DNA from: a bacterium
Lineage (GTDB): Bacteria; UBA10199; 2-02-FULL-50-16; JAJFLM01
Direction of reading: 5' to 3'
NCBI GenBank assembly: GCA_965216315.1
Contig: CBDCFN010000016.1
Span: 1,312,001-1,376,000 of the forward strand
Length of the DNA: 64,000 bases
Under the pieces are notes generated by a model that saw nothing but the letters and a program-made list of their open reading frames with translations, was not told the DNA's origin and ran no database searches. Positions 12,973 through 64,000 of the stretch are shown here, in pieces. Both the position numbers and the translations under genes were made by a program. Numbering within the stretch: position 1 is the stretch's first letter; every line of letters begins with the position of its first letter.

Positions 12973-13053
12973 TTCCCCTCCTTACGAAGGAGGGGTTAGG
13001 GGAGGTCGTGTGGAAAGACCCCTCCCTAGCCCTCCCCTTTGTAAGGGGAGGGA
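12973..13053. repeat. Palindromic repeat family A, intergenic copy
   Basis: Two hairpins, CCCCTCCTT-acg-AAGGAGGGG and CCCTCCCCTT-tgt-AAGGGGAGGG; 3' 40 nt match 36568-36607 at 39/40. Confidence 0.9.
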
Positions 13054-13099: not shown

Positions 13100-13432
13100 A
13101 TGAGCAGTCTGGCGCAGAAAGTTTGTGGTCCTTGTCGCGGGGATATTCCTCCGCTCAAAGGTGACGATCTCGTCCAACTAGAGGTTGAACTCGGTGGTGA
13201 TTGGGAGATCGTCGATGAACATCAGCTCGAAAAGACCTACAAGTTTAAGAATTTCGTCGACGCACTGGCCTTTACGAACAAAGTAGGGGAGTTGGCTGAA
13301 GAGGCCCAACATCACCCGGACATTTATCTCACCTGGGGCAAAGTCAAGATCACCTTATGGACGCACAAGATCGATGGCCTGTCGGAAAACGATTTTATCT
13401 TGGCGGCTAAGTGCGATGCATTACTAAAGTGA
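13100..13432 (+). CDS. phhB: Pterin-4-alpha-carbinolamine dehydratase
   Basis: C.PC N-terminus, FKNF, HHPDI, WTH.IDGLSENDFILAAK. Confidence 0.92.
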   Translation: MSSLAQKVCGPCRGDIPPLKGDDLVQLEVELGGDWEIVDEHQLEKTYKFKNFVDALAFTNKVGELAEEAQHHPDIYLTWGKVKITLWTHKIDGLSENDFILAAKCDALLK

Positions 13433-13515
13433 GGCGGGTGGCGCGAGCGATCCTTTGGACCGTCTTTTCCGACGCAGCCAAAGGATTGCTCCTGCGACAG
13501 GACCCGCCCATTGAT

Positions 13516-14267: not shown

Positions 14268-14296
14268 GTAGGGGCGGTTCGCAAACCGCCCCTTAC
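14268..14296. repeat. GTAG-type REP palindrome (family C), intergenic
   Basis: GTAGGGGCGGTT-cgca-AACCGCCCCTTAC. Confidence 0.8.
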
Positions 14297-14298
14297 TT

Positions 14299-14322
14299 AA
14301 ATATGAGCCGGCTGGGACTCGA
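14299..14322 (-). repeat. 24-bp duplicate of tRNA-Lys 3' end (att-like direct repeat)
   Basis: AAATATGAGCCGGCTGGGACTCGA identical to 14423-14446. Confidence 0.9.
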
Positions 14323-14427
14323 GGCATTATACTCCGCAAAATAGTTCTATTTTGCTGCGCAGCTAAGCCAAGCTCAGCTTTGCCGACTGGCTTCGAGCCA
14401 ATCATTCAATGCTCTATCAATGAAATA

Positions 14428-14500
14428 TGAGCCGGCTGGGACTCGAACCCAGGACACCCGCCTTAAAAGGGCGATGCTCTACCGACTGAGCTACCGGCTC
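14428..14500 (-). tRNA. tRNA-Lys(UUU), CCA not encoded
   Basis: Reverse complement GAGCCGGTAGCTCAGTCGGTAGAGCATCGCCCTTTTAAGGCGGGTGTCCTGGGTTCGAGTCCCAGCCGGCTCA folds as a cloverleaf with anticodon TTT. Confidence 0.96.
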
Positions 14501-14730
14501 TCATTTCGCAAAACGAAAGCGCAGCTTCCGTTTCGCTGGAATCAAGGGGTGAGATACCGCTCTCCCCCTTGATAATCCCCCATCTGATTGGATGGGGACA
14601 TGTTTCTAAACTAGTGTTTTAGGACTGTCAATCATCCGGCTAAAGGCTATGGGATCCCGGTATCATTGTCATCGACGATGGTGGCGTAGATGAAGAGCCC
14701 TAGACAATTTCGCGAAAGAGTGCGAACGAC

Positions 14731-16596: not shown

Positions 16597-16760
16597 ATTT
16601 CCTCCTGCTCCGGAGTCATATGTTATTGACGTGAATCCGTAAACCCTTTAAAAAGCCCTGCAGCAAATGTTAATGTGAGCAAGCGTCGGATTGACTCCGC
16701 GCGAGCGAACCAAATAGGGGGTATGGGGGTGTTGGGCGTAGCACACACACCCATTTTCGA

Positions 16761-22154: not shown

Positions 22155-23330
22155 ATGGAAACCGTTATCGTCAGCGCCGTCCGGACGCCGGTCGGCTCTT
22201 TTCAAGGGTCACTTGCCAGCCTCACGGCACCGCAGCTAGGGGCCATCGTCATCAAAGAAGCCATTAAGCGCGCCGGTCTCGACAAAGATCAGATCGATGA
22301 AGTCGTGATGGGCAACGTCCTCACGGCCGGTGTCGGTCAAAACCCTGCGCGTCAAGCCACCATCCTAGCCGGGCTGGCGGAAAAAACCGGCGCCATGACG
22401 ATTAATAAAGTTTGCGGCTCCGGACTCAAGGCAGTCATGCTGGCGGATCAACTCATCAGGACAGGAGACGCGGAGATCGTTGTCGCCGGCGGCCAAGAAA
22501 GCATGAGCCAGGCTCCCTATATCCTCCAAAAAGCACGAACCGGTTACCGGATGGGTGACGGGAAAATCGTCGATGCCATGATCTATGACGGCCTCCTCAA
22601 TGCCTATGACGGACGACACATGGGAAATCTCACCGAACTTTGCGCCAAAGAATATAACCTGACCCGTGAGATGCAGGACGAGTTTGCCGCCGAAAGTTAT
22701 CGGCGAGCGCAGGCCGCGGTCAAGGATGGCAAGTTTAAAGACGAAATTGTTCCGGTTGAAGTCCCGCAGCGCAAAGGAGATCCTATCGTGGTCGATACGG
22801 ATGAGGAACCGGGGCGCGGCAAAATCGAAAAACTTCCCAGCCTGAGAACGGCTTTTGAAAAAGAGGGAACGGTCACAGCAGGCAATGCCTCGTCGTTAAA
22901 TGACGGGGCCGCGGCAGTGGTCGTCATGAGTGCGGATAAAGCCAAAGAGTTGGGGTTAAAGCCGATTGCAACGATCAAGGGTCATGCCGGTGCTTCGGTG
23001 CAACCCGAATGGTTTACGATTGCGCCATCCGAGGCCGTCAAAAAGGTTTGGCAGCGTCTTGGCATCACTAAAGACGATATTGACCTGATCGAGCTCAACG
23101 AGGCCTTTGCCGCCGTGAGCCTCGCCAATAATCAGATCTTGGGCTTGAGCACCGACAACGTCAATGTCCGCGGCGGAGCCGTCGCCATTGGGCATCCGAT
23201 TGGGGCAAGTGGGGCCCGTATTCTGGTCACGCTCTTGTATGCACTCCAACAGGAAGATAAAAAGACCGGGCTCGCCAGCCTCTGCATTGGTGGCGGTGAA
23301 GGTGTCGCTATGGTCGTCGAACGAAGTTAA
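22155..23330 (+). CDS. atoB: Acetyl-CoA C-acetyltransferase (thiolase)
   Basis: [25 protein letters not shown]. Confidence 0.93.
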
Positions 23331-23333
23331 TTA

Positions 23334-23371
23334 AATCCCCCCTAACCCCCCTTTACAAAAGGGGGGAGGGA
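23334..23371. repeat. Family A half-element, intergenic
   Basis: AATCCCCCCTAACCCCCCTTT-ac-AAAAGGGGGGAGGGA resembles the 3' arm of 12973-13053 and 36527-36607. Confidence 0.65.
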
Positions 23372-23389
23372 CATTTTTACGGAGGAAAT

Positions 23390-32726: not shown

Positions 32727-32921
32727 TTAGCCCATCATTAAGCTGCGAAAATTATCCAGGGCTGTTTCAGCAGACGTATAATGCGTATACCGCGGAGCCT
32801 CGCCTCCAAGCTGCTCAACTGCACGGGCGCGTTCGGCTTGAAGTTTTTCCTGGCTCTGCACGAAGTCTCTCATCATTCTTATCGCCTGCTCATCGGTCAG
32901 GGCTTGATTGTTCAATTCCAT
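32727..32921 (-). CDS. Small hypothetical protein (64 aa)
   Basis: Strong GAGGAGG RBS before ATG 32921; fills the intergenic gap. Confidence 0.6.
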   Translation of the reverse strand: MELNNQALTDEQAIRMMRDFVQSQEKLQAERARAVEQLGGEAPRYTHYTSAETALDNFRSLMMG

Positions 32922-33068
32922 TAGATTCCTCCTCAATTATTACTGAGTTTAGTATCGCCGCACGAGCGGCTTCGAGTTTCCTGCCGATGAAGAAAAAAAT
33001 CTCTATATTTTATCAATATTTGCGAATCTTTCTCAGTATTCGCATGAGTCCGCAAAAAGCTGAAAGCT

Positions 33069-35030
33069 TTAGGGCTGAGTCGGGATATCCGCGATGGAAT
33101 TCGGGTTCTCGATCGAAGCCGTATCGCCTAAATCTTGGCCGAGATACTTCTTTTGAATGACGCCGCGGACGATCTTTGCCGAGCGTGTTTTGGGGAGAGA
33201 CGCAACGATATGGATGGCGCGAGGGGTCAGGGCCTTGCCCATGGCCTTAATAACCTGTTGTTTCAATTCTTCCTGTAGGGGCGCTGCTTGCTGCGCCCTT
33301 TGTTCGGGCGGACCAAGGGCCGCCCCTACGGCAGGGTCTAAAACAACGAAACAGACCAGTTCGGCCCCCTTGACCTCATGGGGAACGCCAATGGCCGCCG
33401 CCTCGATCACCGCGTCATGTTCAATCAAGGCTGCCTCAATCTCGGCCGGCCCGGTGCGGCGACCGGCAATCTTGATCGTGTCGTCGGCACGACCGCGGAG
33501 AAACCAATGCCCGTCGGCATCAACATAGGCCCAGTCGCCGTGGTTCCAGGTATCAGGCCATTTATCGAAGTAAGTACTGAGATAACGTTCCTTATCGTTC
33601 AAAAAGGCCTTCGTCATCGATGGAGCCGGCTGCTTACAGACTAGATAACCAACTTCTTCGCGAACAGACTGTTTGTCTTCATTAAAGACGTCGACATCCA
33701 TACCGAGACCAGGCCCGCGCAGACTACACGGCTTTAATTCCGTAATAGGCAAGGGTGCTAAGAGACAGCCAACTAATTCAGTTCCACCGGAAATGTTGAT
33801 GATCGGACAACGTGATCCGCCGATCTTTTCAAAAAACCACTCATATGATTCGGGGTCCCAAGGTTCGCCCGTTGAACCAAGCACTTCTAATGAAGAGAGA
33901 TCATGTTTGGTCACCCAATCCTCGTCGTAACTCTTTAACAGGCGAACGGCAGTGGGAGAAATGCCGAGATGAGTTAGCCGATGCTTTTCGACAATATCCC
34001 AAATTCGATCCGGCTGCGGATAATCGGGCGCGCCTTCAAAGATCGTTACCGTACCGCCAAAGGTATGCACGCCAATCAATTCCCACGGACCCATCATCCA
34101 ACCAATATCGGTCACCCAAAAAAACCGCGTCTCGGGTTTCACGTCAAAGTAATAGCCGAGCTCTTTGGCCATCTGCGCCTGGCAGCCGCCATGCGTGTGC
34201 ACACAGCCTTTCGGCTTTCCGGTCGTTCCCGACGTATAAAGAATCATTGCCGTCGCCTCGGCATCAAGAATGGCCGTCTCCGCCGTTTGATCTGCTTTGA
34301 CAAAGTCTTCCCACCAAATGTCTCGTGATTCATGCCAGGGGACCTCATCACCGGTTCGCTTCACCACGATGACGTGTTCGACTCCAGGAGCGTCTTTGAG
34401 CCCTTCATCGGCTGCTTCCTTAATGCGAACTTTCTTGCCCCGCCGGTACGCCCCGTCTGCCGTAAAAAGTAATTTACATTCAGCATCGACCAGGCGCGTT
34501 GCCAGAGCGGCCGAACCAAAACCGGAGAAAACGGGAATAAGCGGACAACCCAACTTGAGGCAGGCATAAAAGGCGATGACCATTTCAGGAATCATTGGCA
34601 TGTAAAGGCCCACCGTATCGCCGGCCTTAAGACCGAGTGCCTGCATCGCTCCGGCAACGCGTTCAATCTCAGCACCTAATTCGGAGTAACTCAGCGTCTT
34701 CGCGTCTCCTTCATCGGGTTCCCAAATCAAGGCAGGGTGATGGCCTCGCGTTGCAATATGGCGATCGATCGTATTGTGAACAATATTCAGTTGGCCACCG
34801 ATAAACCAGCGGGTCCACGCCAGCCCGTCGGACTCATCCATCACGTTGGAATAGGGCGTTTGCCACGCAATACCCAAGTCCTTAAGACAGACATCCCAAA
34901 AATGTCCCACATCCGCGACACTCCACTGCAACAAGCTTTCATAATCAGTGAGACCTTGAGCCTTCATGAGGCGGGTGATGTTGGCCGCATTGATACGTTC
35001 AGGACCGGGTTTCCAGATAACATCCGACAT
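33069..35030 (-). CDS. AMP-forming short-chain acyl-CoA synthetase (Acs/acetoacetyl-CoA synthetase-like)
   Basis: YTSGTTGKPKG, DIGWMMGP, GSTGEP, GRADD, LPKTRSAKI.R. Confidence 0.92.
   Translation of the reverse strand: MSDVIWKPGPERINAANITRLMKAQGLTDYESLLQWSVADVGHFWDVCLKDLGIAWQTPYSNVMDESDGLAWTRWFIGGQLNIVHNTIDRHIATRGHHPALIWEPDEGDAKTLSYSELGAEIERVAGAMQALGLKAGDTVGLYMPMIPEMVIAFYACLKLGCPLIPVFSGFGSAALATRLVDAECKLLFTADGAYRRGKKVRIKEAADEGLKDAPGVEHVIVVKRTGDEVPWHESRDIWWEDFVKADQTAETAILDAEATAMILYTSGTTGKPKGCVHTHGGCQAQMAKELGYYFDVKPETRFFWVTDIGWMMGPWELIGVHTFGGTVTIFEGAPDYPQPDRIWDIVEKHRLTHLGISPTAVRLLKSYDEDWVTKHDLSSLEVLGSTGEPWDPESYEWFFEKIGGSRCPIINISGGTELVGCLLAPLPITELKPCSLRGPGLGMDVDVFNEDKQSVREEVGYLVCKQPAPSMTKAFLNDKERYLSTYFDKWPDTWNHGDWAYVDADGHWFLRGRADDTIKIAGRRTGPAEIEAALIEHDAVIEAAAIGVPHEVKGAELVCFVVLDPAVGAALGPPEQRAQQAAPLQEELKQQVIKAMGKALTPRAIHIVASLPKTRSAKIVRGVIQKKYLGQDLGDTASIENPNSIADIPTQP
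33275..33329. repeat. GTAG REP doublet (REPIN-like, family C) in-frame inside the acyl-CoA synthetase gene
   Basis: GTAGGGGCG..CGCCC-tttgttc-GGGCGG..CCGCCCCTAC; encodes VGAALGPPEQRAQQAAPL. Confidence 0.8.
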
Positions 35031-35101
35031 GCTGTGCGATCTCCTAGCCAGTTTCTTGACTTTTTTCAAGCACTTAACTAGCTTTTCTCGAACATTTTAC
35101 T

Positions 35102-36208
35102 ATGTCAGCATTATCAAAAAATCGCGTCGTGGTCGCCATGAGTGGGGGCGTCGATAGCTCGGTCGCCGCCTGGCTCCTTAAAGAGCAGGGATACGAGGTC
35201 ATTGGCATCAGCATGAAGACCCATGAAGAGGTGGAACCTTGTCCGGAAGAATTACCAACTTTCCGCCATGCCGCTAAGAATTGCTGTTCGGTTGAAGACA
35301 TCATCGATGCCCGCGCCGTGTGTCAGCTTCTCGATATTCCATTCTACGCGATGAACTTTAAGAAAGAATTTAAAGAAAAGGTGATGGACTACTTTGCCGA
35401 TGAATACGCCGCCGGCCGAACACCCAATCCCTGCGTCAAATGTAATGATGAATTAAAGTTTGATGCCCTCTTGAGGCAAGCACGTGCACTGGGTGCCTAT
35501 TATCTGGCGACAGGTCATTATGTTCAAAAACAGCAAGATGAGTCGGGGCAATGGCATCTCTATTGCGCCAATGACACGAACAAAGATCAAAGTTACTTTT
35601 TATTTGGATTAAGGCAGTCTGAATTAGAACACATCCTCTTTCCTGTTGGCGCTATGAATAAAGAAGAGGTCAGGGAAATCGCGCGGAAGGCGGGAATTGC
35701 GACATCTGAAAAAACCGAGAGTCAGGAGATTTGTTTTGTTCCGAATAATGACTACGCCAGGGTTATTGAGCAACTGTATCCCGATAAAGTGCCCGGCCGA
35801 GGAACCTTTCGTAATGAGCGCGGCGAGCCGCTTGGAACGCACCGGGGAACCCATGCCTTCACGATAGGGCAGCGTCGCGGGCTGGGAGTCGCCGCCGGCG
35901 AGCGGCTCTACGTGACGCGAATTGACAGCCAAAATAATGAAGTCGTGCTGGGTACCGACAACGAGCTATACCGAAACGAGTTGGAGGCTTCCGAAATCAA
36001 TTGGGTGGGTGAGCTCCCATCGCAACAAGAATTACACGTCGAGGCCAAGATTCGTTATCGGCAAACGCCCGCGCCGGCGATCGTCCGTCTCCAGGGTGAA
36101 GATAAGGCAACGATCCAGTTTGTAGCGCCGCAACGAGCCATTACACCGGGGCAGGTCATTGTCTTTTATCATGACAATGAACTCTTGGGAGGCGGCTGGA
36201 TCCAATGA
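35102..36208 (+). CDS. mnmA: tRNA 2-thiouridine(34) synthase
   Basis: AMSGGVDSS, TPNPCVKCN, ATGHY, KDQSYFL, SQEICF, TIGQRRGLG. Confidence 0.96.
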   Translation: MSALSKNRVVVAMSGGVDSSVAAWLLKEQGYEVIGISMKTHEEVEPCPEELPTFRHAAKNCCSVEDIIDARAVCQLLDIPFYAMNFKKEFKEKVMDYFADEYAAGRTPNPCVKCNDELKFDALLRQARALGAYYLATGHYVQKQQDESGQWHLYCANDTNKDQSYFLFGLRQSELEHILFPVGAMNKEEVREIARKAGIATSEKTESQEICFVPNNDYARVIEQLYPDKVPGRGTFRNERGEPLGTHRGTHAFTIGQRRGLGVAAGERLYVTRIDSQNNEVVLGTDNELYRNELEASEINWVGELPSQQELHVEAKIRYRQTPAPAIVRLQGEDKATIQFVAPQRAITPGQVIVFYHDNELLGGGWIQ

Positions 36209-37536
36209 GAGTTGCACTCCATACCTTAGGCTGTAAAGCCAACCAGGCCGATGCCACGTATTTGACCGCCGTCTTGAGACAGAAAGGCTACCAAGTTGTC
36301 GGGCTCAATGACGTCGCCGAATATTACATCTTCAACACCTGTACGGTAACCGACGAGGCGGATCGCGAGGCCCGTCAACTGACCCGAAGGGCAAAGCGGA
36401 AAAATCCCGACGCCAAAGTCATCGTCACCGGCTGTTACGCCCAAACTCAGGCCGAGGCCGTCGCGGCCTTGCCGAGTGTTGATGAGGTAGTAGGGAATCA
36501 AGAGAAGGGGAATATTCCCGAATTACTTCCCCTCCTTGCCAAGGAGGGGATTGAGGGGAGGCCCACAAAAGACCCCTCCCTAACCCTCCCCTTTGTAAGG
36601 GGAGGGAGCATACGACGGCAAACAAATGTACCCAGTTTCGGTTTCTCGCACTATTCCAAGAACACGCGCGCCCAGGTCAAGATTCAGGATGGCTGTGACA
36701 AATTTTGCACCTTTTGCATCATTCCTTTTGCACGTGGCAAAAACCGTAGCGTTCCACCGGAGCAAATCATCTCTGAACTGCACGAACTACGTCGACATGG
36801 CTATGAAGAGGCTGTTCTGACCGGAATACACATCGGCACGTATGGCCTCGATATTCATAGCAGTCTCGAAAACCTATTAGAGCAGATTGAAGCGGCCAAA
36901 CCATTGCCACGCATTCGCCTGTCGTCACTGGATCCGGAAGAGATCAGCGACCGTCTCATCCAAATGATTGCCAACAGCGAAATTATCTGCCCGCATATCC
37001 ATGTCGCCGTACAGAGTGGGGACGACACGATCCTGGCGCGCATGAAGCGCCGTTATGGGGTTGGGCAGTTTCGCGACATTATCAATCAAATAGTGAAGGT
37101 CATGCCAAAGATCGCGATTGGAACCGACCTTATTGTGGGTTTTCCGGGCGAAACCGAGGCTCAGTTTGAGCACAGCTACCAGATGATCGCTGAACTGCCT
37201 ATCAGCTATGCCCATGTTTTTCCCTATTCCACGCGCAAGGGCACTCCCGCTGCGAGCTATCCCGGCCAAGTCAGCCCTGACGAGAAGAAAAAGCGCACCA
37301 AGCGGCTGAGACAACTGAGCCAGTCCAAACGAATGCGTTATTTTGAACAATTTTTAGGCAAACCTCTGGAGATCGTCGTTGAATCACGGCGTGAGCCTAA
37401 AGAAGGCTTGTTAAGAGGCGTCACTCCAAACTATATTCCTGTTCACTTTAAAGGGACGGATCATTTGTTACGCACGCGTCAGATCATCCGCTTAGATCAA
37501 ATTCATAATTCAAGGGTGTATGGACATGTGGCGTAA
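36205..37536 (+). CDS. mtaB: tRNA t6A37 methylthiotransferase
   Basis: TLGCKAN, NTCTVT, VTGCYAQ, KIQDGCDKFCTFC, HVFPYS.R.GT. Confidence 0.92.
   Translation: MRVALHTLGCKANQADATYLTAVLRQKGYQVVGLNDVAEYYIFNTCTVTDEADREARQLTRRAKRKNPDAKVIVTGCYAQTQAEAVAALPSVDEVVGNQEKGNIPELLPLLAKEGIEGRPTKDPSLTLPFVRGGSIRRQTNVPSFGFSHYSKNTRAQVKIQDGCDKFCTFCIIPFARGKNRSVPPEQIISELHELRRHGYEEAVLTGIHIGTYGLDIHSSLENLLEQIEAAKPLPRIRLSSLDPEEISDRLIQMIANSEIICPHIHVAVQSGDDTILARMKRRYGVGQFRDIINQIVKVMPKIAIGTDLIVGFPGETEAQFEHSYQMIAELPISYAHVFPYSTRKGTPAASYPGQVSPDEKKKRTKRLRQLSQSKRMRYFEQFLGKPLEIVVESRREPKEGLLRGVTPNYIPVHFKGTDHLLRTRQIIRLDQIHNSRVYGHVA
36527..36607. repeat. Palindromic repeat family A, in-frame inside mtaB
   Basis: Near-identical to intergenic 12973-13053; encodes LPLLAKEGIEGRPTKDPSLTLPFVRGG. 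Confidence 0.9.
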
Positions 37537-38281
37537 ACGCGTTATTGGCGAAGAAAAGAAGCAGCTCAAGCAACTGGCTAAAAAACTGGGGTTTTCTTTT
37601 AAACGACTCAGGCTGCTGCGCCGAGCCCTCACGCATCGTTCCTATGCCAATGAGCAAGGCTTTCCCGCCGAGGCTCACAATGAACGACTCGAGTTTCTGG
37701 GAGATGCCGTCCTTGAATTAGCAATCAGTGAACTTCTCATGACGCGCTACCCGGAATTCACCGAAGGAGAACTGTCTAAATTGAGAGCCGCCATCGTCAA
37801 TGAGAAACAACTCGCCGAAATTGCGCGCGTCTATCACATTGGGGACCATTTATTGTTGGGACGCGGAGAAGAACAAACAAACGGCCGAGAAAAACCCTCA
37901 CTTTTGTCTGATGCTTATGAAGCGGTTTTGGGAGCTGCCTATTTAGACCGGGGCTATAAAAGGTCACGTGCCCTGATCGAAAAACATTATAGCCGACTTT
38001 TTGAAAATCGTACGCCCGAATCTTTTTACCTTGATTTTAAGACCGAGTTGCAAGAACGCGTCCAAAGCATCTTTCGCACGATTCCTCAATACCGGCTTAG
38101 AGGGGAACGTGGACCCGACCATCGCAAGACTTTTGAAGTTCAACTCATGATTCGAGATCAAGCGTACGGAACGGGCGTTGGGCATAGTAAAAAAGAAGCC
38201 GAACAAAAGGCGGCCGAACAGGCCCTCAAAAAACTTGAAGAAGAACAAGCGAGCTCGGACAAATCAACGGCGGCACGCTAA
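37520..38281 (+). CDS. rnc: Ribonuclease III
   Basis: ALTHRS, NERLEFLGDAVL, dsRBD (KTELQE..GPDH..G.G.SKKEAEQ). Confidence 0.96.
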   Translation: MDMWRKRVIGEEKKQLKQLAKKLGFSFKRLRLLRRALTHRSYANEQGFPAEAHNERLEFLGDAVLELAISELLMTRYPEFTEGELSKLRAAIVNEKQLAEIARVYHIGDHLLLGRGEEQTNGREKPSLLSDAYEAVLGAAYLDRGYKRSRALIEKHYSRLFENRTPESFYLDFKTELQERVQSIFRTIPQYRLRGERGPDHRKTFEVQLMIRDQAYGTGVGHSKKEAEQKAAEQALKKLEEEQASSDKSTAAR

Positions 38282-39171
38282 TGGCCTTTAAAACAGGTAT
38301 TATCGCAATACTCGGTAGACCTAATGCCGGCAAATCAACCCTATTGAATGCCTTGATCGGTCAAAAAATTGCTGCCGTTACCGACAAACCACAAACAACC
38401 CGCTTTAACGTAAAAGGCATACGGCATGCGTCTTCGTCACAAATGATCTTTTTAGATACTCCCGGATTCCATAGTGGCGAAAAAACATTTAATCAGTGGA
38501 TGCTCGATCAAACGCGGCACGCCATTCTCGAAGCCGATGTCGCCATTTTGCTGATTGCCGCAGATCGCAAATGGCATGAGTTGGATAAGCAGCTCCTGCA
38601 ATTGATTAATGATTCGAAATGCAAACCCATCCTTGTCCTCAATAAAATTGATCTCGTATCAAAAGGACGGCTCTTGCCATTGATGAGGAAAATCTCGAAT
38701 GACGCTCCGGACACGCTCATCATTCCTATCAGTTCTCTCAGCACTGATGGGATTGATATTCTCCTTAATGCCATGGAGGAGGCCCTTCCTGAAGCGCCGC
38801 CTTTGTATCCCGATGACATCCCAACCGATCAAACGATGCGCCAACTGGCCGCCGAACTGATTCGTGAAAAGCTCTTTCAACTTAGTCGTGAAGAATTGCC
38901 GTATTCCATTGCTGTTTTTATCGAAAGTTATGAAGAACCGCCGCAGGAGGGTGGATTAACCCGCATTGGAGCCGTTGTTCTTGTCGAGAGAAAGAGTCAA
39001 AAAAGCATTGTTATCGGCAAAGGGGGTGAGTTCTTGAAAAAAGTCGGGACAGCCGCTCGCAAGGAACTCGAGTCCATGCTCGGAGGCAAGGTTTTCTTAT
39101 CGTTACATGTCAAGATCTCGAAGGATTGGAGCCAAAACCCCATCAAACTAAAAGAACTGGGCTATGCATAA
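38281..39171 (+). CDS. era: GTPase Era
   Basis: GRPNAGKST, KPQTTR, DTPG, NKID, EELPYS, KH domain. Confidence 0.96.
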   Translation: MAFKTGIIAILGRPNAGKSTLLNALIGQKIAAVTDKPQTTRFNVKGIRHASSSQMIFLDTPGFHSGEKTFNQWMLDQTRHAILEADVAILLIAADRKWHELDKQLLQLINDSKCKPILVLNKIDLVSKGRLLPLMRKISNDAPDTLIIPISSLSTDGIDILLNAMEEALPEAPPLYPDDIPTDQTMRQLAAELIREKLFQLSREELPYSIAVFIESYEEPPQEGGLTRIGAVVLVERKSQKSIVIGKGGEFLKKVGTAARKELESMLGGKVFLSLHVKISKDWSQNPIKLKELGYA

Positions 39172-40069
39172 GCTAATCATCATTATAGGGGTTCGCGTCA
39201 CCCCCTCCACCGGCAAAACCGGACGGAGCCTCCCCCTCTCACTCGCGTTGCTCGCAATTTTAGCATGTTTGGGAACCGTGCACCCCGTTTATGCAGAAGG
39301 GGACATCATTGGGGATATTATTTCCGCCGAAGCCAAGAAAAAGCCTACGTCATCGGCAAAGAAACCTTCCACAAAGAAGGCTAGAAAGAAGGTTATCGTC
39401 ATTGATCCGGGACACGGAGGGAAAGACACGGGTGCCATCGGAGTCCGAAAAGTTCGCGAAAAAGATCTCGTACTGCAACTATCGCGACGGCTGGCTAAGG
39501 AGCTCAAAAAAATAATTGATGCTGAAATTATCTTAACGCGTTCCAATGACAAATTTATCACGCTTGATCAACGCGATGAAATTGCGATTGCTAAAAAAGC
39601 CGACGCCTTTTTATCTATCCATGCGAATTCGGCTAAACGAAAAGAAGCGAATGGTATCGAAATCTATTACCTTAATGACGGCTCGGATGAAGCCGCCAAC
39701 CGCTTAGCCGCACGTGAAAACAAAGGCAGCAAAAAAAGCCTCTCAGACCTCAAAAAAATACTTTCAACTCTGATCCAGACAGACAGTACGGAATTATCGC
39801 AATTACTTGCAAAGGAAGTGAAAAAGTCGATTCACAAACAGATAGCCTCTCGCTACTCTTTAGAACGATTGGACATCAAAACGGCTTTATTCTACGTCCT
39901 GGTGGGCTCACAAGCTCCCAGTATACTCTTGGAAGTTGGTTTCGTGACCAATCCAAAGGAAGCCAAGCGGCTCGGACAAAAGGAATATCAGGAACGTCTC
40001 TCCAAAGCCGTCGCCGCCGGTGTTGCCCGTTATTTTAAAGTGATAGAATCGCAGAAAGTGAACTTATAA
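39164..40069 (+). CDS. N-acetylmuramoyl-L-alanine amidase (Amidase_3, AmiC-like)
   Basis: IDPGHGGKD.GA, EK, SIHAN, LLEVGF. Confidence 0.92.
   Translation: MHKLIIIIGVRVTPSTGKTGRSLPLSLALLAILACLGTVHPVYAEGDIIGDIISAEAKKKPTSSAKKPSTKKARKKVIVIDPGHGGKDTGAIGVRKVREKDLVLQLSRRLAKELKKIIDAEIILTRSNDKFITLDQRDEIAIAKKADAFLSIHANSAKRKEANGIEIYYLNDGSDEAANRLAARENKGSKKSLSDLKKILSTLIQTDSTELSQLLAKEVKKSIHKQIASRYSLERLDIKTALFYVLVGSQAPSILLEVGFVTNPKEAKRLGQKEYQERLSKAVAAGVARYFKVIESQKVNL
39181..39255 (-). repeat. Palindromic repeat family B, inside the amidase N-terminal coding region
   Basis: Reverse complement matches 44680-44753: exact GAGAGGGGGAGGCTCC plus a 26/29 3' block. Confidence 0.88.
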
Positions 40070-42756
40070 TGATGGATTATCCATTCCCTACATTAGATTG
40101 GAGTTTACCGGAAAAAGGCGAGGTCCTAAAGCGGTATGTTCAAGAGAAAAAGAGCACGCTTGATAAGATTATTGAAAACAAGGAGCCTGCACGCTTTGCG
40201 ATCGAATGGCGGACAAATGCCATTGATAAGCTTTTGATCGGTCTTTTTGAACAAACGAGCCGCACTTTGGAAGCCGATCAGAATCATTATGCCATGATAG
40301 CCCAAGGCGGTTATGGCCGGCGGGAACTCAGCTACCATTCCGATATAGACTTATTGTTCTTACATAACAGTCAACATCCTAAGAAGCTTAAAGCGCAACT
40401 CAATCAAATCCTTTATCCGTTATGGGATAGTGGACTCGATCTCGGCTTTGCCGTACGGACGGAAAAAGAGTGTCTCAAACTAATGAAGGATGATCTTACG
40501 ATCCTGACTTCGTTGATCGACGCGCGCTATATCGTCGGTAATGAAACTATTTTTAATAGTTTTGAAAAGAAATTTCGGAAGCATTTGGATAATTCACGTT
40601 TTCGCATCAGCTTCATGCAAAAGAAAGAAAAGGAACAAACAGATCGTTTGCATCGTTTTGGAGGGTCGGTTTTCTTACAAGAGCCTAACACTAAAGAGGG
40701 GAAAGGGGGATTAAGAGAATATCACCATATCCACTGGGTCACCAAAACTGTTTTCAATACAAATGACCTTTCCGCCCTTGTCCGTGCCGGTTGGATCAAG
40801 TCCAAGGAGCTCAGAAACTTGCAGGAGGCCATTACATTCATCTTGGCGGTACGAAACATGCTCCACAAACTCTCCGGACGCAAAACAGATCAAATCCTAT
40901 ATGAGCATAAAGCCGCAATAGCAGAATGGTTGGGCTTTAAGGATACTGAAACCATACTCGCCGTCGAAGATTTTATGAGAGCCTATTATCGGCATGCCAG
41001 TGAATGTTTTCGCATCAGTGAACAAGTTAATCGCAAACTTCTTCAATCTAAAGGTGGGTTTAGACTTAAGCGACTCAAACGGATGAAAAAGCAAAAATTT
41101 GATGAATATTTTAATATTGAAAATAAGTTCCTTACTTTAGGTGATCCTGACGCCTTCAAACTAAAACCATCAAACCTCATTTATATCTTTCGGATCATGC
41201 AACAAACGGGAATCACCCCCGGTCGAAGCGTTAAAGAAGCCGTCCGTGACAGCCTGAAACTAATCAATGATGATTTTCGCGCTAATCCCACCCACGCGAA
41301 AATATTCCGCGAGATGCTGGCCGAACCGGAAACCATCGCCCCGCCCATGCTTGCCATGCATGAGCTCGGCGTACTCGACCGTTTTCTGCCGGAGTTCAAG
41401 AACCTCATGTATCGTGCGCAACATGATGTCTATCACGTTTATACCGTCGATATTCATTCTATTCTGGCCGTAGGTGTCTTTGGGCGCCTGGTCGCTGGCA
41501 TCTATCAGGATAAATATCCAACGGCGACAGAAGTAGCCAAGGCCATCGTCAAAAAGGACCTCCTGTCTTTTGCTATCCTTTATCATGACATTGGGAAGGG
41601 GGAAGGGTCCGGACATGTAGAGAAGGGGGCACCACTTGTCCGCCGAGCGGCCGAACGACTGGGATTCACTCCTGATGAGATTGATACGAGTGAGTTTCTG
41701 GAATTGTCTCATTTAATGATGACACACTTGGCGTTTCGACGTGATTTAGATGACCCCAATCTCATTCTCCAGTTTGCTAAATCGATGGCGACAGAAAGCA
41801 ATCTTAATAAACTCTATGTGCTTACCTTTAGTGATGTAAAAGCAGTCAGCCAAGAGGCCCTTACTAAATGGAAGGAAAGCCTGCTCGAATATTTATATCT
41901 AAAGGCACGTTCCGTTCTCAAAAAAGGGGATTTTTCCAAAGAGAAAATTGAAGAAATTAAGAGCTCACTGCTGGAAAATACAAAAATTTTAGCTAATTCC
42001 GAGTTCAGTGATGACGAAATCAACCACTTTTTCAGTATTATGCCGCCGCGTTATTTCCTAACGGCGACAGCCGTTTCAATACTTGACCATCTAGACATGT
42101 TACGCCGTTTCAATGGGCTTCCCGTCGTCTTTAACCGTCGCATACTTGAGAAAGAGGGATCAAGTGAATGGACCTTATTGACACTCGATACTCCTGGCCT
42201 TTTTTCCAAAATCTGTGGTGTTGTCGCCGCCAATAGTCTCAATATTACTGAAGCCTATTTAAATACGACTAATGACGGTAAAGACCTTTTTATTTTCAAG
42301 CTTCAAACCGCACAAGGACAATCGATTGCGGAAGAAAGCAAGTGGAATAAATTGGAGGCGGACGTCCTTAATGTGGTTCAGGGTGAAATTCCCCTACAGG
42401 AACTGCTCGGCAACCGCTTGCGCCCATCGCTCATCAAGCCAAAGACAGCGCGACAACTCCCAACCAAGGTTGTTATCGATAATGATTTATCGCCGTTTTA
42501 CACAATCATTGATGTCTATGCGCACGATCGCGTCGGGCTCCTTTATCATATAACTTCGGCACTTGCAGAGCTGGGGCTTTATGTTGATATGTCAAAAATC
42601 GCTACTAAGGTCGATCAAGTCACGGATACATTTTATGTACGCGACATTTTTGGCCAGAAATTGCGCGCCGAAGACCGGATTAAAAGAGTTCGCAAAACGC
42701 TATTAAGCGTCATCGATGGAGTTCAAGAAGAAAGTCAGGAGGTCGCTCGAGCATGA
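40069..42756 (+). CDS. glnD: PII uridylyltransferase/uridylyl-removing enzyme
   Basis: GGYGRRELSYHSDIDLL, EPNTKEGKGGLR, YHVYTVD.H, HDIGKG, two ACT domains. Confidence 0.95.
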   Translation: MMDYPFPTLDWSLPEKGEVLKRYVQEKKSTLDKIIENKEPARFAIEWRTNAIDKLLIGLFEQTSRTLEADQNHYAMIAQGGYGRRELSYHSDIDLLFLHNSQHPKKLKAQLNQILYPLWDSGLDLGFAVRTEKECLKLMKDDLTILTSLIDARYIVGNETIFNSFEKKFRKHLDNSRFRISFMQKKEKEQTDRLHRFGGSVFLQEPNTKEGKGGLREYHHIHWVTKTVFNTNDLSALVRAGWIKSKELRNLQEAITFILAVRNMLHKLSGRKTDQILYEHKAAIAEWLGFKDTETILAVEDFMRAYYRHASECFRISEQVNRKLLQSKGGFRLKRLKRMKKQKFDEYFNIENKFLTLGDPDAFKLKPSNLIYIFRIMQQTGITPGRSVKEAVRDSLKLINDDFRANPTHAKIFREMLAEPETIAPPMLAMHELGVLDRFLPEFKNLMYRAQHDVYHVYTVDIHSILAVGVFGRLVAGIYQDKYPTATEVAKAIVKKDLLSFAILYHDIGKGEGSGHVEKGAPLVRRAAERLGFTPDEIDTSEFLELSHLMMTHLAFRRDLDDPNLILQFAKSMATESNLNKLYVLTFSDVKAVSQEALTKWKESLLEYLYLKARSVLKKGDFSKEKIEEIKSSLLENTKILANSEFSDDEINHFFSIMPPRYFLTATAVSILDHLDMLRRFNGLPVVFNRRILEKEGSSEWTLLTLDTPGLFSKICGVVAANSLNITEAYLNTTNDGKDLFIFKLQTAQGQSIAEESKWNKLEADVLNVVQGEIPLQELLGNRLRPSLIKPKTARQLPTKVVIDNDLSPFYTIIDVYAHDRVGLLYHITSALAELGLYVDMSKIATKVDQVTDTFYVRDIFGQKLRAEDRIKRVRKTLLSVIDGVQEESQEVARA

Positions 42757-43025
42757 CCGGCATGATCATATTAATCATTCTGCTCATGGCCGTCCTGATC
42801 GGTCTCGTTATCAAACTGCGTCAACAAAGCCGAAAATATGAGGAAAAAAGTGTCAAAGAGACGATGTCTCCGATCATGCACTCGATTATTCGGCGGGAGC
42901 GAACCGTCAATTTACAGCGAAAGCAGCGTTTTGAGAAGTCCTTGGCCGCAGCCACCGACCCGCAAGGTGAAGCTCGGGAAAGGCCGGATAAGACCTCTCC
43001 AGGGGAAAATTCCCACTCTTCTTGA
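42753..43025 (+). CDS. Small membrane protein, hypothetical
   Basis: ATGA overlap with the glnD stop; N-terminal TM helix. Confidence 0.55.
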   Translation: MTGMIILIILLMAVLIGLVIKLRQQSRKYEEKSVKETMSPIMHSIIRRERTVNLQRKQRFEKSLAAATDPQGEARERPDKTSPGENSHSS

Positions 43026-43165
43026 GTGAACCTGCCCTCAACCCATTACGATGCCATGCGTCAAAAGTGTTGATTTCATTAAGTATTCTTGAATACCCCT
43101 CGCGCCAATGTTAGGATGCGGCTGTCGAGACTGGAGAAGGGCTGGAGCGATCCGCGGAGCGAAAC

Positions 43166-43486
43166 ATGGCACGAAAAATAAAGATCTGCAGCGCTGAGGG
43201 CTGTAATAACGCCCAAACCACTAAAGAATATTGCCGCTTGCATTACTTGCAGAATTGGAAAACGATTAAAGCGGAAGAAAAACGTAAAGCAAGCAAGCGA
43301 CTCAATCGCTACGTTGAAGGCATCATGAAGCGCAACCCCGACTCAGCAAGGTCACGTGCTGAAGGCGGTGACGTAGAATACAGTTTAAGTGCCTCCGACG
43401 AAGTAGAGGGCCTGGTTGAGGACCTTGGTTATTCGGATCCAGACAGTCTCGATGAAATCATTTCCAACCTCAAAGAAGATAAGTAA
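43166..43486 (+). CDS. Hypothetical protein with C-x4-C..C-x2-H N-terminal motif
   Basis: ICSAEGCNNAQTTKEYCRLHYLQNW; GGAG RBS. Confidence 0.7.
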   Translation: MARKIKICSAEGCNNAQTTKEYCRLHYLQNWKTIKAEEKRKASKRLNRYVEGIMKRNPDSARSRAEGGDVEYSLSASDEVEGLVEDLGYSDPDSLDEIISNLKEDK

Positions 43487-44879
43487 AAAAAAGGTCTATT
43501 TTAAGACATTCGGCTGTCAAATGAATGAGGCCGACTCCGACCGCATGCTCGGCCTCTTGGCAAATGATGATTACATTGCCACCCAGGATCCGGATGACGC
43601 CGACCTCATTATCGTCAATACCTGTAGTGTCCGCGATAAGGCCTACCACAAAGCCATCAGCGCGATTGGCAAACATAATAAAAATGGCCAAAAGATTAAA
43701 ATCGGCGTAACCGGCTGTGTCGCATCCCAAGAGGGAAAAGTACTTGCCGAGCGCTTTGATAGCGTCGATTTCGTGCTGGGAACCGACCATATTGATAAAA
43801 TTCGGGAGGCAGTTCAATATACGCGGCTTCAGGATGGTGCCTATATCGCGACTAAATTCCATGAAATTGAGGACTACCATTTTCCTGAGATCGCTATTGC
43901 CCCTTCAACGAGAATGGTGAAGGCCTATGTCACTATTATGAAGGGCTGCGATAATGTCTGTGCCTTTTGCATCGTTCCTTCGACACGTGGCCCTGAAATA
44001 TCCAGAAGGGCTGAAGACATCTTACAAGAGATACAAGCACTCGAACGACGAGGAGCCCGTGAAATCACGCTATTGGGGCAAAACGTCAATTCTTACGGAA
44101 AACAAAATTCTACCGATGCGGACTTCGCGTCCCTGCTCAGAAAAGTAGAAGAGAACACCCGCATTGAAAGGCTCCGTTTTACCTCACCTCATCCCAAGGA
44201 CCTTTCGCCGCGACTGATTGAAGAATATCGCCGCAGTAAAATTTTGTGTCGACATATCCACCTGCCGGCCCAGTCAGGATCTTCGCGTGTCTTAAAACGG
44301 ATGCGTCGGGCACATACTCGTGACACTTACTTGAAACGCATACACGACCTGCGCAACGCCTGTCCTGACGTGGCCATCACGACCGATTTAATCGTCGGGT
44401 TTCCAGGAGAAAGTGACGCCGACTTTCAGGATACTCTCTCGCTCATGCGGGAAGTCGAATATGATGCGTCTTATTCATTTGCCTATTCCGAACGACCGGG
44501 CACGGAAGCGGCTGGATTTGAGGATGATGTCCCCGCTAAAGTAAAATCGGAGCGCCTCCAAGCCCTCCAGGCCCTGCAACACGACCTCAGTGCACAAAAA
44601 AACAGCTATTTCATTGGGAAAATAGTCCCTATCTTGGTGGAAGGGATTGATAAAAAGCATCACAAAAACTATGTACATAGCGAACGCAGTAAGCGAGAGG
44701 GGGAGGCTCCAGGAGCTGTGCTTCTGGAGGGGGCGACGCGAGCCCCTATGATGGGACGTACAAGTTGCAATCGCGTCGTCAATTTTGATGGCAGTGACGA
44801 TGATATCGGTGATATCATTAATATAAGGATAGCGAGCGCAACAGCGTATTCACTGCATGGAGACAAGGTAGATGGGTAG
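43452..44879 (+). CDS. miaB: tRNA-2-methylthio-N6-dimethylallyladenosine synthase
   Basis: TFGCQMNEADS, NTCSVR, GCDNVCAFC.VP.TRG, SPHP, C-terminal TRAM domain. Confidence 0.95.
   Translation: MKSFPTSKKISKKKVYFKTFGCQMNEADSDRMLGLLANDDYIATQDPDDADLIIVNTCSVRDKAYHKAISAIGKHNKNGQKIKIGVTGCVASQEGKVLAERFDSVDFVLGTDHIDKIREAVQYTRLQDGAYIATKFHEIEDYHFPEIAIAPSTRMVKAYVTIMKGCDNVCAFCIVPSTRGPEISRRAEDILQEIQALERRGAREITLLGQNVNSYGKQNSTDADFASLLRKVEENTRIERLRFTSPHPKDLSPRLIEEYRRSKILCRHIHLPAQSGSSRVLKRMRRAHTRDTYLKRIHDLRNACPDVAITTDLIVGFPGESDADFQDTLSLMREVEYDASYSFAYSERPGTEAAGFEDDVPAKVKSERLQALQALQHDLSAQKNSYFIGKIVPILVEGIDKKHHKNYVHSERSKREGEAPGAVLLEGATRAPMMGRTSCNRVVNFDGSDDDIGDIINIRIASATAYSLHGDKVDG
44680..44753 (+). repeat. Palindromic repeat family B, in-frame inside the miaB TRAM domain
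   Basis: Matches the reverse complement of 39181-39255; encodes ERSKREGEAPGAVLLEGATRAPMM. Confidence 0.88.
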
Positions 44880-45402
44880 TTCTAAAAGTCGTGATGCTGA
44901 CTTTATCAAGGTGACCGTGACCGGTCTTACCATTGACCCATTTACTAATATGCCGATTATCATTCTAAAAGATGAAGACGAAAAAAATGCTCTCCCCATC
45001 TGGATCGGGCTCATAGAAGCTTCGGCCATCGCCACTGAACTTGAAAAGGTTGAACTGTCACGACCCATGACCCATGACCTCCTTAAAAATATTTTAGGTG
45101 AACTTGCCATTTCGGTAGAACGCGTTGAAGTCGTCGATCTACAAGACAATACTTTCTTTGCAAATATTCACTTAAAAAAAGCCGGCGAGGACATGATTGT
45201 CGATGCCCGTCCCAGTGACGCCGTTGCGTTGGCCTTGCGTACCAACGCTCCCATTTATGTCTCGCGTTCCGTAATGGAAAAATCACGAAAAATTGATCTC
45301 TCAGCTGAAGGGATTGATGCAGAAGAATCCGTTAAAAAAGAAAAATGGACGGAAATTCTTGAAGGCCTCTCGCCCGACGACTTCGGCAAATACAAGATGT
45401 AA
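44872..45402 (+). CDS. Bifunctional nuclease family (DUF151)
   Basis: LPIWIG..EA, RPMTHDL, DARPSDAVALA. Confidence 0.92.
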   Translation: MGSSKSRDADFIKVTVTGLTIDPFTNMPIIILKDEDEKNALPIWIGLIEASAIATELEKVELSRPMTHDLLKNILGELAISVERVEVVDLQDNTFFANIHLKKAGEDMIVDARPSDAVALALRTNAPIYVSRSVMEKSRKIDLSAEGIDAEESVKKEKWTEILEGLSPDDFGKYKM

Positions 45403-57140: not shown

Positions 57141-57172
57141 TTATCATTTTGATAAATTTATCATTTTGATAA
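57141..57172. promoter_or_regulatory. Tandem palindromic operator/enhancer (2 x TTATCATTTTGATAA)
   Basis: Identical 15-mers at 57141-57155 and 57158-57172, 75-105 nt upstream of a sigma-54 promoter. Confidence 0.7.
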
Positions 57173-63918: not shown

Positions 63919-63944
63919 GTAGGGGAGACCTGCCGGTCGCCCCT
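63919..63944. repeat. GTAG-type REP palindrome (family C), degenerate
   Basis: GTAGGGGAGACC-tgcc-GGTCGCCCCT. Confidence 0.6.
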
Positions 63945-64000
63945 CCATAACATTGCAAATTGAGACAGCCGCATCCCATTTTGAAACCACTTGCAATTTC

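Follow-up and report, generated by a model that had tools for sequence, protein, structure and literature searches.

In-frame hairpin repeats of three families in conserved genes of a UBA10199 bacterium

Four host genes and their inserts

We analysed a 64,000-nucleotide stretch of bacterial DNA (hereafter the window; positions 1,312,001 to 1,376,000 of contig CBDCFN010000016.1, GenBank assembly GCA_965216315.1, GTDB lineage UBA10199; 2-02-FULL-50-16; JAJFLM01) in which repeats of three hairpin families, termed A, B and C, lie within four conserved genes. In window coordinates, these genes and their inserts are as follows.

33069..35069, minus strand: AcsA-like acyl-CoA synthetase open reading frame (ORF), host of family C; profile TIGR02188 matches best, at 603.6 bits, under its cut-off
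33275..33329, 55 nt: family C in the acyl-CoA synthetase (Acs), codons 581-599; an inverted dimer of GTAG repetitive extragenic palindromes (REPs), with GTAG at one end and CTAC at the other
36205..37536, plus strand: mtaB, tRNA t6A37 methylthiotransferase; TIGR01579 at 444.5 bits, above cut-off; CxxxCxxC motif intact
36527..36607, 81 nt: family A in mtaB, codons 108-135; an inward-facing pair of BoxC/triplex-motif hairpins
39164..40069, plus strand: N-acetylmuramoyl-L-alanine amidase; its start overlaps the era stop
about 39182-39256, about 75 nt, minus strand: family B in the amidase; read antisense, it accounts for about 25 signal-region codons (7-31)
43416..44879, plus strand: miaB, tRNA i6A37 methylthiotransferase; TIGR01574 at 486.5 bits, above cut-off; CxxxCxxC motif intact
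about 44677-44751, about 75 nt, plus strand: family B in miaB, read sense, at the turn that joins TRAM-domain strands one and two

All four inserts keep the host reading frame. An earlier reading of the window's letters (the original prediction) had described four in-frame inserts, and we located the repeats at 33275, 36527, 39182 and 44677. It had also assigned family B to both miaB and the amidase, which profile matches bore out, and had counted two tRNA methylthiotransferases among the four hosts, both of which were confirmed by their profiles (TIGR01579 and TIGR01574). The acyl-CoA synthetase ORF comprises 666 residues counted from the first TTG, the real start being perhaps a few codons downstream. 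In MtaB, the 27-codon insert lies in the linker that joins the N-terminal and radical-SAM domains. The ends of family B in miaB and the amidase are uncertain by 1-3 nt; target duplications of 5-6 nt at these junctions were considered and dropped because the element ends cannot be fixed to the base. We found no long duplication beside any of the four window inserts, and a covariance-model scan of positions 33000-45000 against Rfam gave 0 matches at E <= 1. A contig from a public sequencing run, possibly the window's own source, covers positions 32900-45100 with 0 differences, so the inserts are on its face not an assembly artefact. No contig joint skipping any of the four inserts was found in four runs (two samples from one study); contigs drop rare variants, so this does not show absence.

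We aligned 12 hosts with relatives, eight of them beyond the window hosts and each of those with up to five relatives. Orthologs from relatives without the repeats lacked the peptide segments in MiaB, Acs, MtaB and the amidase. MiaB was 26 or 27 residues longer than all 11 of its 11 orthologs. Acs showed an approximate net gain of 11 residues over both of two orthologs from 18 codons of repeat, and family C likely replaced about 7 host codons. MtaB was 16 residues longer than its counterpart in relative G002, about 11 to 16 longer than most orthologs of the class and only 3 longer than that of relative G001; as the net gain of 16 over G002 came from 27 codons, about 11 host codons were likely replaced. 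The MtaB linker of G001 is nearly equal in length and its DNA is a GTAG REP dimer, a family different from A, so we rejected inheritance of the family A insert for G001. The amidase signal region is 43 residues long, compared with about 21 and 26 in relatives. The amidase start overlaps or abuts the era stop in both family relatives as well, and since the start is placed against the era stop in all three genomes compared, the insert lies behind a likely conserved start. From hydropathy only, the basic stretch of the lengthened signal peptide and the initial half of its hydrophobic core are predicted to come from family B.

Across the aligned hosts, net gain was clear in MiaB, MtaB, Acs, the amidase, PheS, TsaD, ArgS, NadC and TrmD (5 residues in TrmD). 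TrmB had a net gain of 0, indicating replacement, one TruA site showed little or no gain, and HemW was mixed. GTAG REP dimers occupy two of the three HemW insertion sites in G001. That G001 has another repeat family at matching positions in MtaB and HemW points to selection that keeps insertions at permissive sites. Identity to G001 was 69% for MiaB, 72.5% for Acs and 63% for MtaB, comparable to the 67% of insert-free MnmA.

In the predicted model of MtaB, the predicted local distance difference test score (pLDDT) fell below 50 at residues 116-126, with the domains intact. In that of MiaB, pLDDT was below 50 only at residues 391-417 and in one four-residue loop; the TRAM strands on both sides were formed, and the block after the insert scored above 90. 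The alignment of MiaB to PDB 7MJZ breaks between 7MJZ residues 411 and 412, at a 26-residue insertion. These models suggest that inserts in a surface loop or linker leave the MtaB and MiaB folds intact.

Repeat copies across the genome

An iterated profile scan of the 2.96-Mb genome (2473 genes called by our own codon score, 91.6% coding) gave 23 matches to family A (14 near full length), 39 to B and 22 to C, and self-comparison of the genome revealed five further repeat families, A2, D, E, F and H. The repeats are thus multi-copy, as the original prediction had anticipated. Among 201 merged repeat sites, 152 are non-coding or overlap a gene end, 14 are terminal and 35 are internal in 31 genes; after one weak GTAG match was dropped, the internal in-frame copies numbered 34 in 30 genes. 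One further A copy lies in an Rsm22-like gene that the gene caller missed. A loose scan for GTAG hairpins proved unspecific (97 matches, and 122 when the genome was reversed); the stricter scan used in its place gave 50 matches compared with 12 and 12, so that some single GTAG sites may be chance. Within genes there were 1.3 repeats per 100 kb, compared with 60 in the DNA outside them, a density about 47-fold lower in coding DNA.

If the host genes were decaying, or an N-terminal insert were untranslated, few new peptides would be made. Many N-terminal REPs are annotation artefacts according to PMC3733652, and several of the 14 terminal matches are probably of this kind (for example, in obg and a thiolase). 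For the window genes this explanation is very unlikely: three of the four inserts are internal, the catalytic motifs are intact, no second mtaB or miaB appears among the genome matches listed, and the amidase start is set against the era stop as in both relatives.

Pfam-labelled hosts include TsaD, TruA (2 sites), TrmD, TrmB, PheS, ArgS, PrmC, HemW (3), ComEC (2), UvrB, UvrC, PriA and NadC. HemW (contig C16:2209603-2210847) carries three repeat families, A, A2 and H, and ComEC (contig C16:117922-120312) two; family E copies also lie in frame inside PriA and UvrC. Eight of the 30 hosts (MtaB, MiaB, TsaD, TruA, TrmD, TrmB, PheS and ArgS) are tRNA modification or charging enzymes, an excess with p = 5e-7 at a genome share of 2.5% and 3e-4 at 6%, where the share is our own estimate and the class was chosen partly post hoc. 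This excess would fit a single lineage-specific machine that targets hairpins to coding regions, especially those of tRNA-modifying genes, as would the clustering of four coding copies in an 11.5-kb part of the window. This clustering departs only mildly from chance (p = 0.02 with 43 coding copies placed randomly). Such a machine is nevertheless quite improbable given the depletion of repeats in coding DNA. The families also differ in structure, partner gene and scars, and family B is class-wide and found in other phyla. Only one of 15 Pfam-labelled family B hosts in other genomes is a tRNA enzyme, and the same host classes are seen for other REPs in PMC3733652. The tRNA-enzyme bias likely reflects old, indispensable and probably modestly expressed genes that tolerate and retain inserts.

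Further repeat copies lie elsewhere in the window.

12973..13053: full copy of family A, intergenic
13429-13510: copy of family E
14268..14294, plus strand: single GTAG REP hairpin, intergenic, of another subfamily than the acs copy
14506-14584: copy of family D
16674-16758: copy of family F
23329..23374: half copy of A2, a sister triplex-motif family of A, intergenic
63919..63945, plus strand: single GTAG REP hairpin, intergenic, of another subfamily than the acs copy

The intergenic family A copy expected at 12973 was confirmed, and the half copy reported at 23334 belongs to A2 rather than A. Family C in Acs also held; the hairpins at 14268 and 63919, proposed as further copies of it, are lone GTAG hairpins without a match to the acs-type profile. 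Long flanking duplications were found beside two family D and four family F copies. Both at contig C16:784941-785128 and at 1900334-1900518, two near-identical tRNA-like sequences enclose a B copy back to back with a D copy, and three near-identical A copies lie within 3 kb at contig C15:316858-319697, two of them bracketing obg in opposite orientation. Several single GTAG REPs overlap gene ends and apparently supply the TAG stop (contig C16:127360, 182814, 471847 and others), a role reported in PMC3733652. A perfect 24-nt direct repeat, tRNA-end-like by eye, adjoins the GTAG hairpin (window 14299-14322 and 14423-14446, 124 nt apart). An AT-rich palindrome with five copies, including window 57141-57172, resembles a Fur box and is presumably a regulator site rather than a mobile repeat.

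Partner genes and insertion scars

The family C copy in acs is a perfect-ended inverted GTAG dimer, each GTAG foot carrying a GC-rich stem. A search for a matching transposase, as the original prediction had suggested, found a gene resembling those for REP-associated tyrosine transposases (RAYTs) at contig C16:1517830-1518396, picked up by profile NF047646 only, with one REP upstream and a REP pair in frame inside. GTAG tags occupy the same loop in 16 of 17 scorable homologs of this protein. An in-frame REP inside tnpA(REP) genes is given as a mark of subclass 2.4 in the text available from Quentin et al. 2018 (10.1101/279083); here the subclass 2.4 feature is the in-frame REP between the HUH motif and the Y motif together with a flanking REP, and our assignment uses this feature, not the authors' profiles. 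The only Pfam Y1_Tnp match in the genome (contig C16:1213204-1213947) was dismissed as a mover, as it has no REP-like flank. Among 30 Y1 transposase loci of the class, we found no match to B, C, D, E, F or H and one to A.

We are fairly confident that family C is moved by the genome's TnpA(REP)/RAYT-type HUH enzyme, often replacing host codons. Other genes may readily tolerate REP pairs that are routinely translated within their own transposase. Intragenic in-frame GTAG REPs, including ones in tRNA synthetase, pseudouridine synthase and uvr genes, were described by Di Nocera et al. 2013 (PMC3733652), so the earlier statement that REP-type elements are normally extragenic was too strong in view of that work and 10.1101/279083. 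Unlike the GTAG REP/TnpA(REP) subclass 2.4 systems as far as those two sources present them, short copies in this genome often take the place of host codons and add little net length, and the transposase has a REP upstream only.

Elements of families A and B both fold as three small hairpins. Each half of family A consists of a pyrimidine (C-rich) stem, a purine (G-rich) stem and a second, mirrored purine stem. This pyrimidine-purine-purine triplex pattern was present in 22 of 22 A matches and 31 of 35 A2 matches, and in 0 of 500 random 90-mers and 0 of 129 matches outside the A families. Because the detector permits no purine in the first stem, it passed over the E. coli motif, and the counts it gives are lower bounds. 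The layout of C-rich, G-rich and G-rich stems in palindromic pairs is shared with BoxC/PIT/TMECO elements (Holder et al. 2015, PMC4666352). The stems here deviate from strict TMECO, and that paper has no in-frame coding copies in what it describes. Its available text reports no mobility gene near the motifs and leaves their origin open.

The sole DUF559 match in the genome (contig C15:464572-464946) is flanked on both sides by A-type hairpin motifs. DUF559 has a Vsr-like PD-(D/E)XK fold, and this protein retains the acidic and His residues that are invariant among 20 aligned homologs. By a simple hairpin test, 22 of 30 DUF559 loci from the class, compared with 4 of 577 control windows, had A-type hairpins on both sides. 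By a stricter triplex test, the motif lay within 200 nt in 25 of the 30 loci from the class and in 47 of 70 from metagenomes (those with full flanks; 10 of 80 were excluded for short flanks), compared with 5 of 1424 control windows. Both ends faced inward in 16 of 30 class and 24 of 70 metagenome loci. Family A itself is an inward end pair in which about 7 nt of spacer stand in the place of the DUF559 gene. When kin are counted as independent, DUF559 was present in 21 of 22 genomes with at least 15 triplex hairpins and in 4 of 21 with none. Across the 93 class genomes the median hairpin count was 11 with DUF559 and 1 without it, or 7 and 1 after removing two hairpins per gene. In E. coli, a TMECO-pattern motif, recognised by eye, follows the stop of the DUF559 gene ycjD at a distance of about 170 nt, and an unrelated hairpin precedes the gene. 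A literature search, which did not cover subscription papers and supplements, found no report linking DUF559 to these repeats or to BoxC. Family A may well be an empty derivative of a DUF559 nuclease cassette, with the Vsr-like enzyme acting on triplex-motif ends in trans; we hold this with about as much belief as doubt.

Family B was found in 41 of 93 class genomes and, among the matches listed, also in records titled Nitrospirota, Deltaproteobacteria, Syntrophorhabdus and others. Neither Rfam nor a literature search yielded a match to it. Its central hairpin covaries: 50 copies gave 256 Watson-Crick, 19 G-T, 2 A-C and 23 other pairs. Of 108 B copies elsewhere, 22 lie in long ORFs, and 16 of these 22 use the frame used in MiaB, compared with 78 of 362 open frames (p = 4e-7); all five ORFs antisense to B lack a Pfam label and may be spurious, in which case the frame bias would strengthen. 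Adjacent duplications of 37-68 nt were found at 6 of 37 B copies in this genome, with two more matches excluded as tRNA gene pairs, compared with 0 of 25 A/A2 and 0 of 6 C copies. Elsewhere, duplications accompanied 16 of 141 B copies, some of them tRNA gene pairs, and 2 of 300 random positions.

B has neither terminal inverted repeats nor a short fixed target duplication, and no B match was found in the 30 Y1 transposase or 29 DUF559 loci. It is roughly an even call, in our judgement, that B integrates by a recombination-like route able to copy flanking host DNA, using an enzyme not encoded next to it. Bacterial miniature inverted-repeat transposable elements, as outlined in PMC10969869 and PMC2229807, resemble B in being short, non-coding, dispersed and able to fuse in frame. 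B differs from them in its lack of a terminal inverted repeat and of a fixed short target duplication, in long, sometimes diverged duplications beside a minority of copies, and in that no transposase was found beside it. In genome G082 (locus L102), a B copy within a ClpB/ClpA-type gene is flanked by a 45-nt in-frame duplication with a few base changes, the element and 15 host codons having been added together. In two genomes B copies lie in NadC (locus L104 in G080; contig C15:440854-441777), where they differ in site and run in opposite directions, and arginine decarboxylase carries B near the N-terminus in two genomes (loci L098 and L106).

These properties bear on whether the inserts have been co-opted, either as peptides that alter the enzymes, through tRNA contact by the TRAM loop or a rebuilt signal peptide, or as mRNA hairpins that regulate genes. 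The TRAM domain, which holds the MiaB insert, is an RNA-binding domain, and the insert in the amidase brings basic and hydrophobic residues into its signal region. In the covarying B hairpins, G-T mispairs outnumber A-C ones on one strand (19 compared with 2), and the frame preference is strong. We consider co-option unlikely, however. The inserts are lineage-specific and not conserved in orthologs, and relatives carry different families at the same sites. Tolerance of small, polar and flexible residues would also be expected to produce a frame bias. In the one tested case, given in PMC2229807, a Rickettsia palindromic element (RPE) in guanylate kinase was neutral or slightly harmful.

Origin and meaning of the inserts

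The inserts belong to three separate hairpin families and probably arose by insertion of non-autonomous mobile elements, with selection keeping in-frame copies at permissive sites. Such elements would insert occasionally, by a different route for each family, and selection would retain only the copies that preserve the frame at loops, linkers or a signal region. By analogy with the Rickettsia guanylate kinase element, the peptides are likely near-neutral passengers. The original prediction had proposed a process in this lineage that inserts hairpin elements into proteins. Mobile hairpins did add peptide segments to conserved proteins; the three families are unlike in structure, partner gene and insertion scar, and B extends across the class and into other phyla, so a single lineage-specific process is not supported. 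There are at least three separate systems, filtered by selection, and together they form a rich case of a known phenomenon.

In-frame repeats are already known from RPEs and intragenic REPs. As with RPEs (Ogata et al. 2000, through the accounts in PMC10969869 and PMC2229807), the elements are dispersed palindromes, partly intergenic and partly in frame in conserved proteins, with several families per genome. They are multi-copy and absent from orthologs, and in this sense are RPE-like. They are not RPEs proper, which are stem-loops of 105-146 bp with terminal inverted repeats, as the window elements measure 55-81 nt. Unlike RPEs as those accounts describe them (105-146 nt), the elements here span 27-81 nt and fall into three mechanistically different classes, two with candidate partner enzymes in the same genome.

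A bolder proposal, which we put forward tentatively and hold at somewhat below even, is that DUF559, a PD-(D/E)XK, Vsr-like protein and neither an HUH nor a DDE transposase, mobilises BoxC/triplex repeats and spreads both the cassette that encodes it and empty pairs of ends, family A among them. Along with REPs driven by RAYTs and the enzyme-less, target-copying B, these would write new segments of 10-30 residues into core proteins, tRNA enzymes repeatedly, and independently at the same loops.

Several points tell against these interpretations. The tie between DUF559 and family A is an association only, and the genome tally behind it treats kin as independent. The exact TMECO consensus has only 2 strict matches in the genome, making family A a variant; the upstream end of this genome's DUF559 cassette is degenerate, and 23 of 70 metagenome DUF559 loci are without the motif. 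The RAYT-like protein scores 57.5 bits on NF047646, compared with an 80-bit cut-off, its match being split by the internal insert; its gene has no REP downstream, and its REP loops differ from those of the acs copy. No recurring enzyme was found beside B in 150 loci. The tRNA bias was not repeated elsewhere. The nearest genomes compared are other genera, and net lengths and replaced codons are approximate. Finally, the inserted peptide segments are predicted from DNA reading frames.

The DUF559-BoxC link, the mover of B and the tRNA-enzyme bias are all testable. One genome holds an intact DUF559 cassette together with about 20 empty derivatives, some in essential enzymes; this gives a candidate enzyme, and a substrate to go with it, for the repeat whose origin was left open by Holder et al. 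2015. Family B, structured and widespread, leaves an unusual scar of long duplications, and no mover is known for it. The different repeat families in the same loops of related genera amount to a natural map of insertion tolerance in tRNA enzymes, and these same-loop insertions offer a test of neutral versus adaptive peptide gain.

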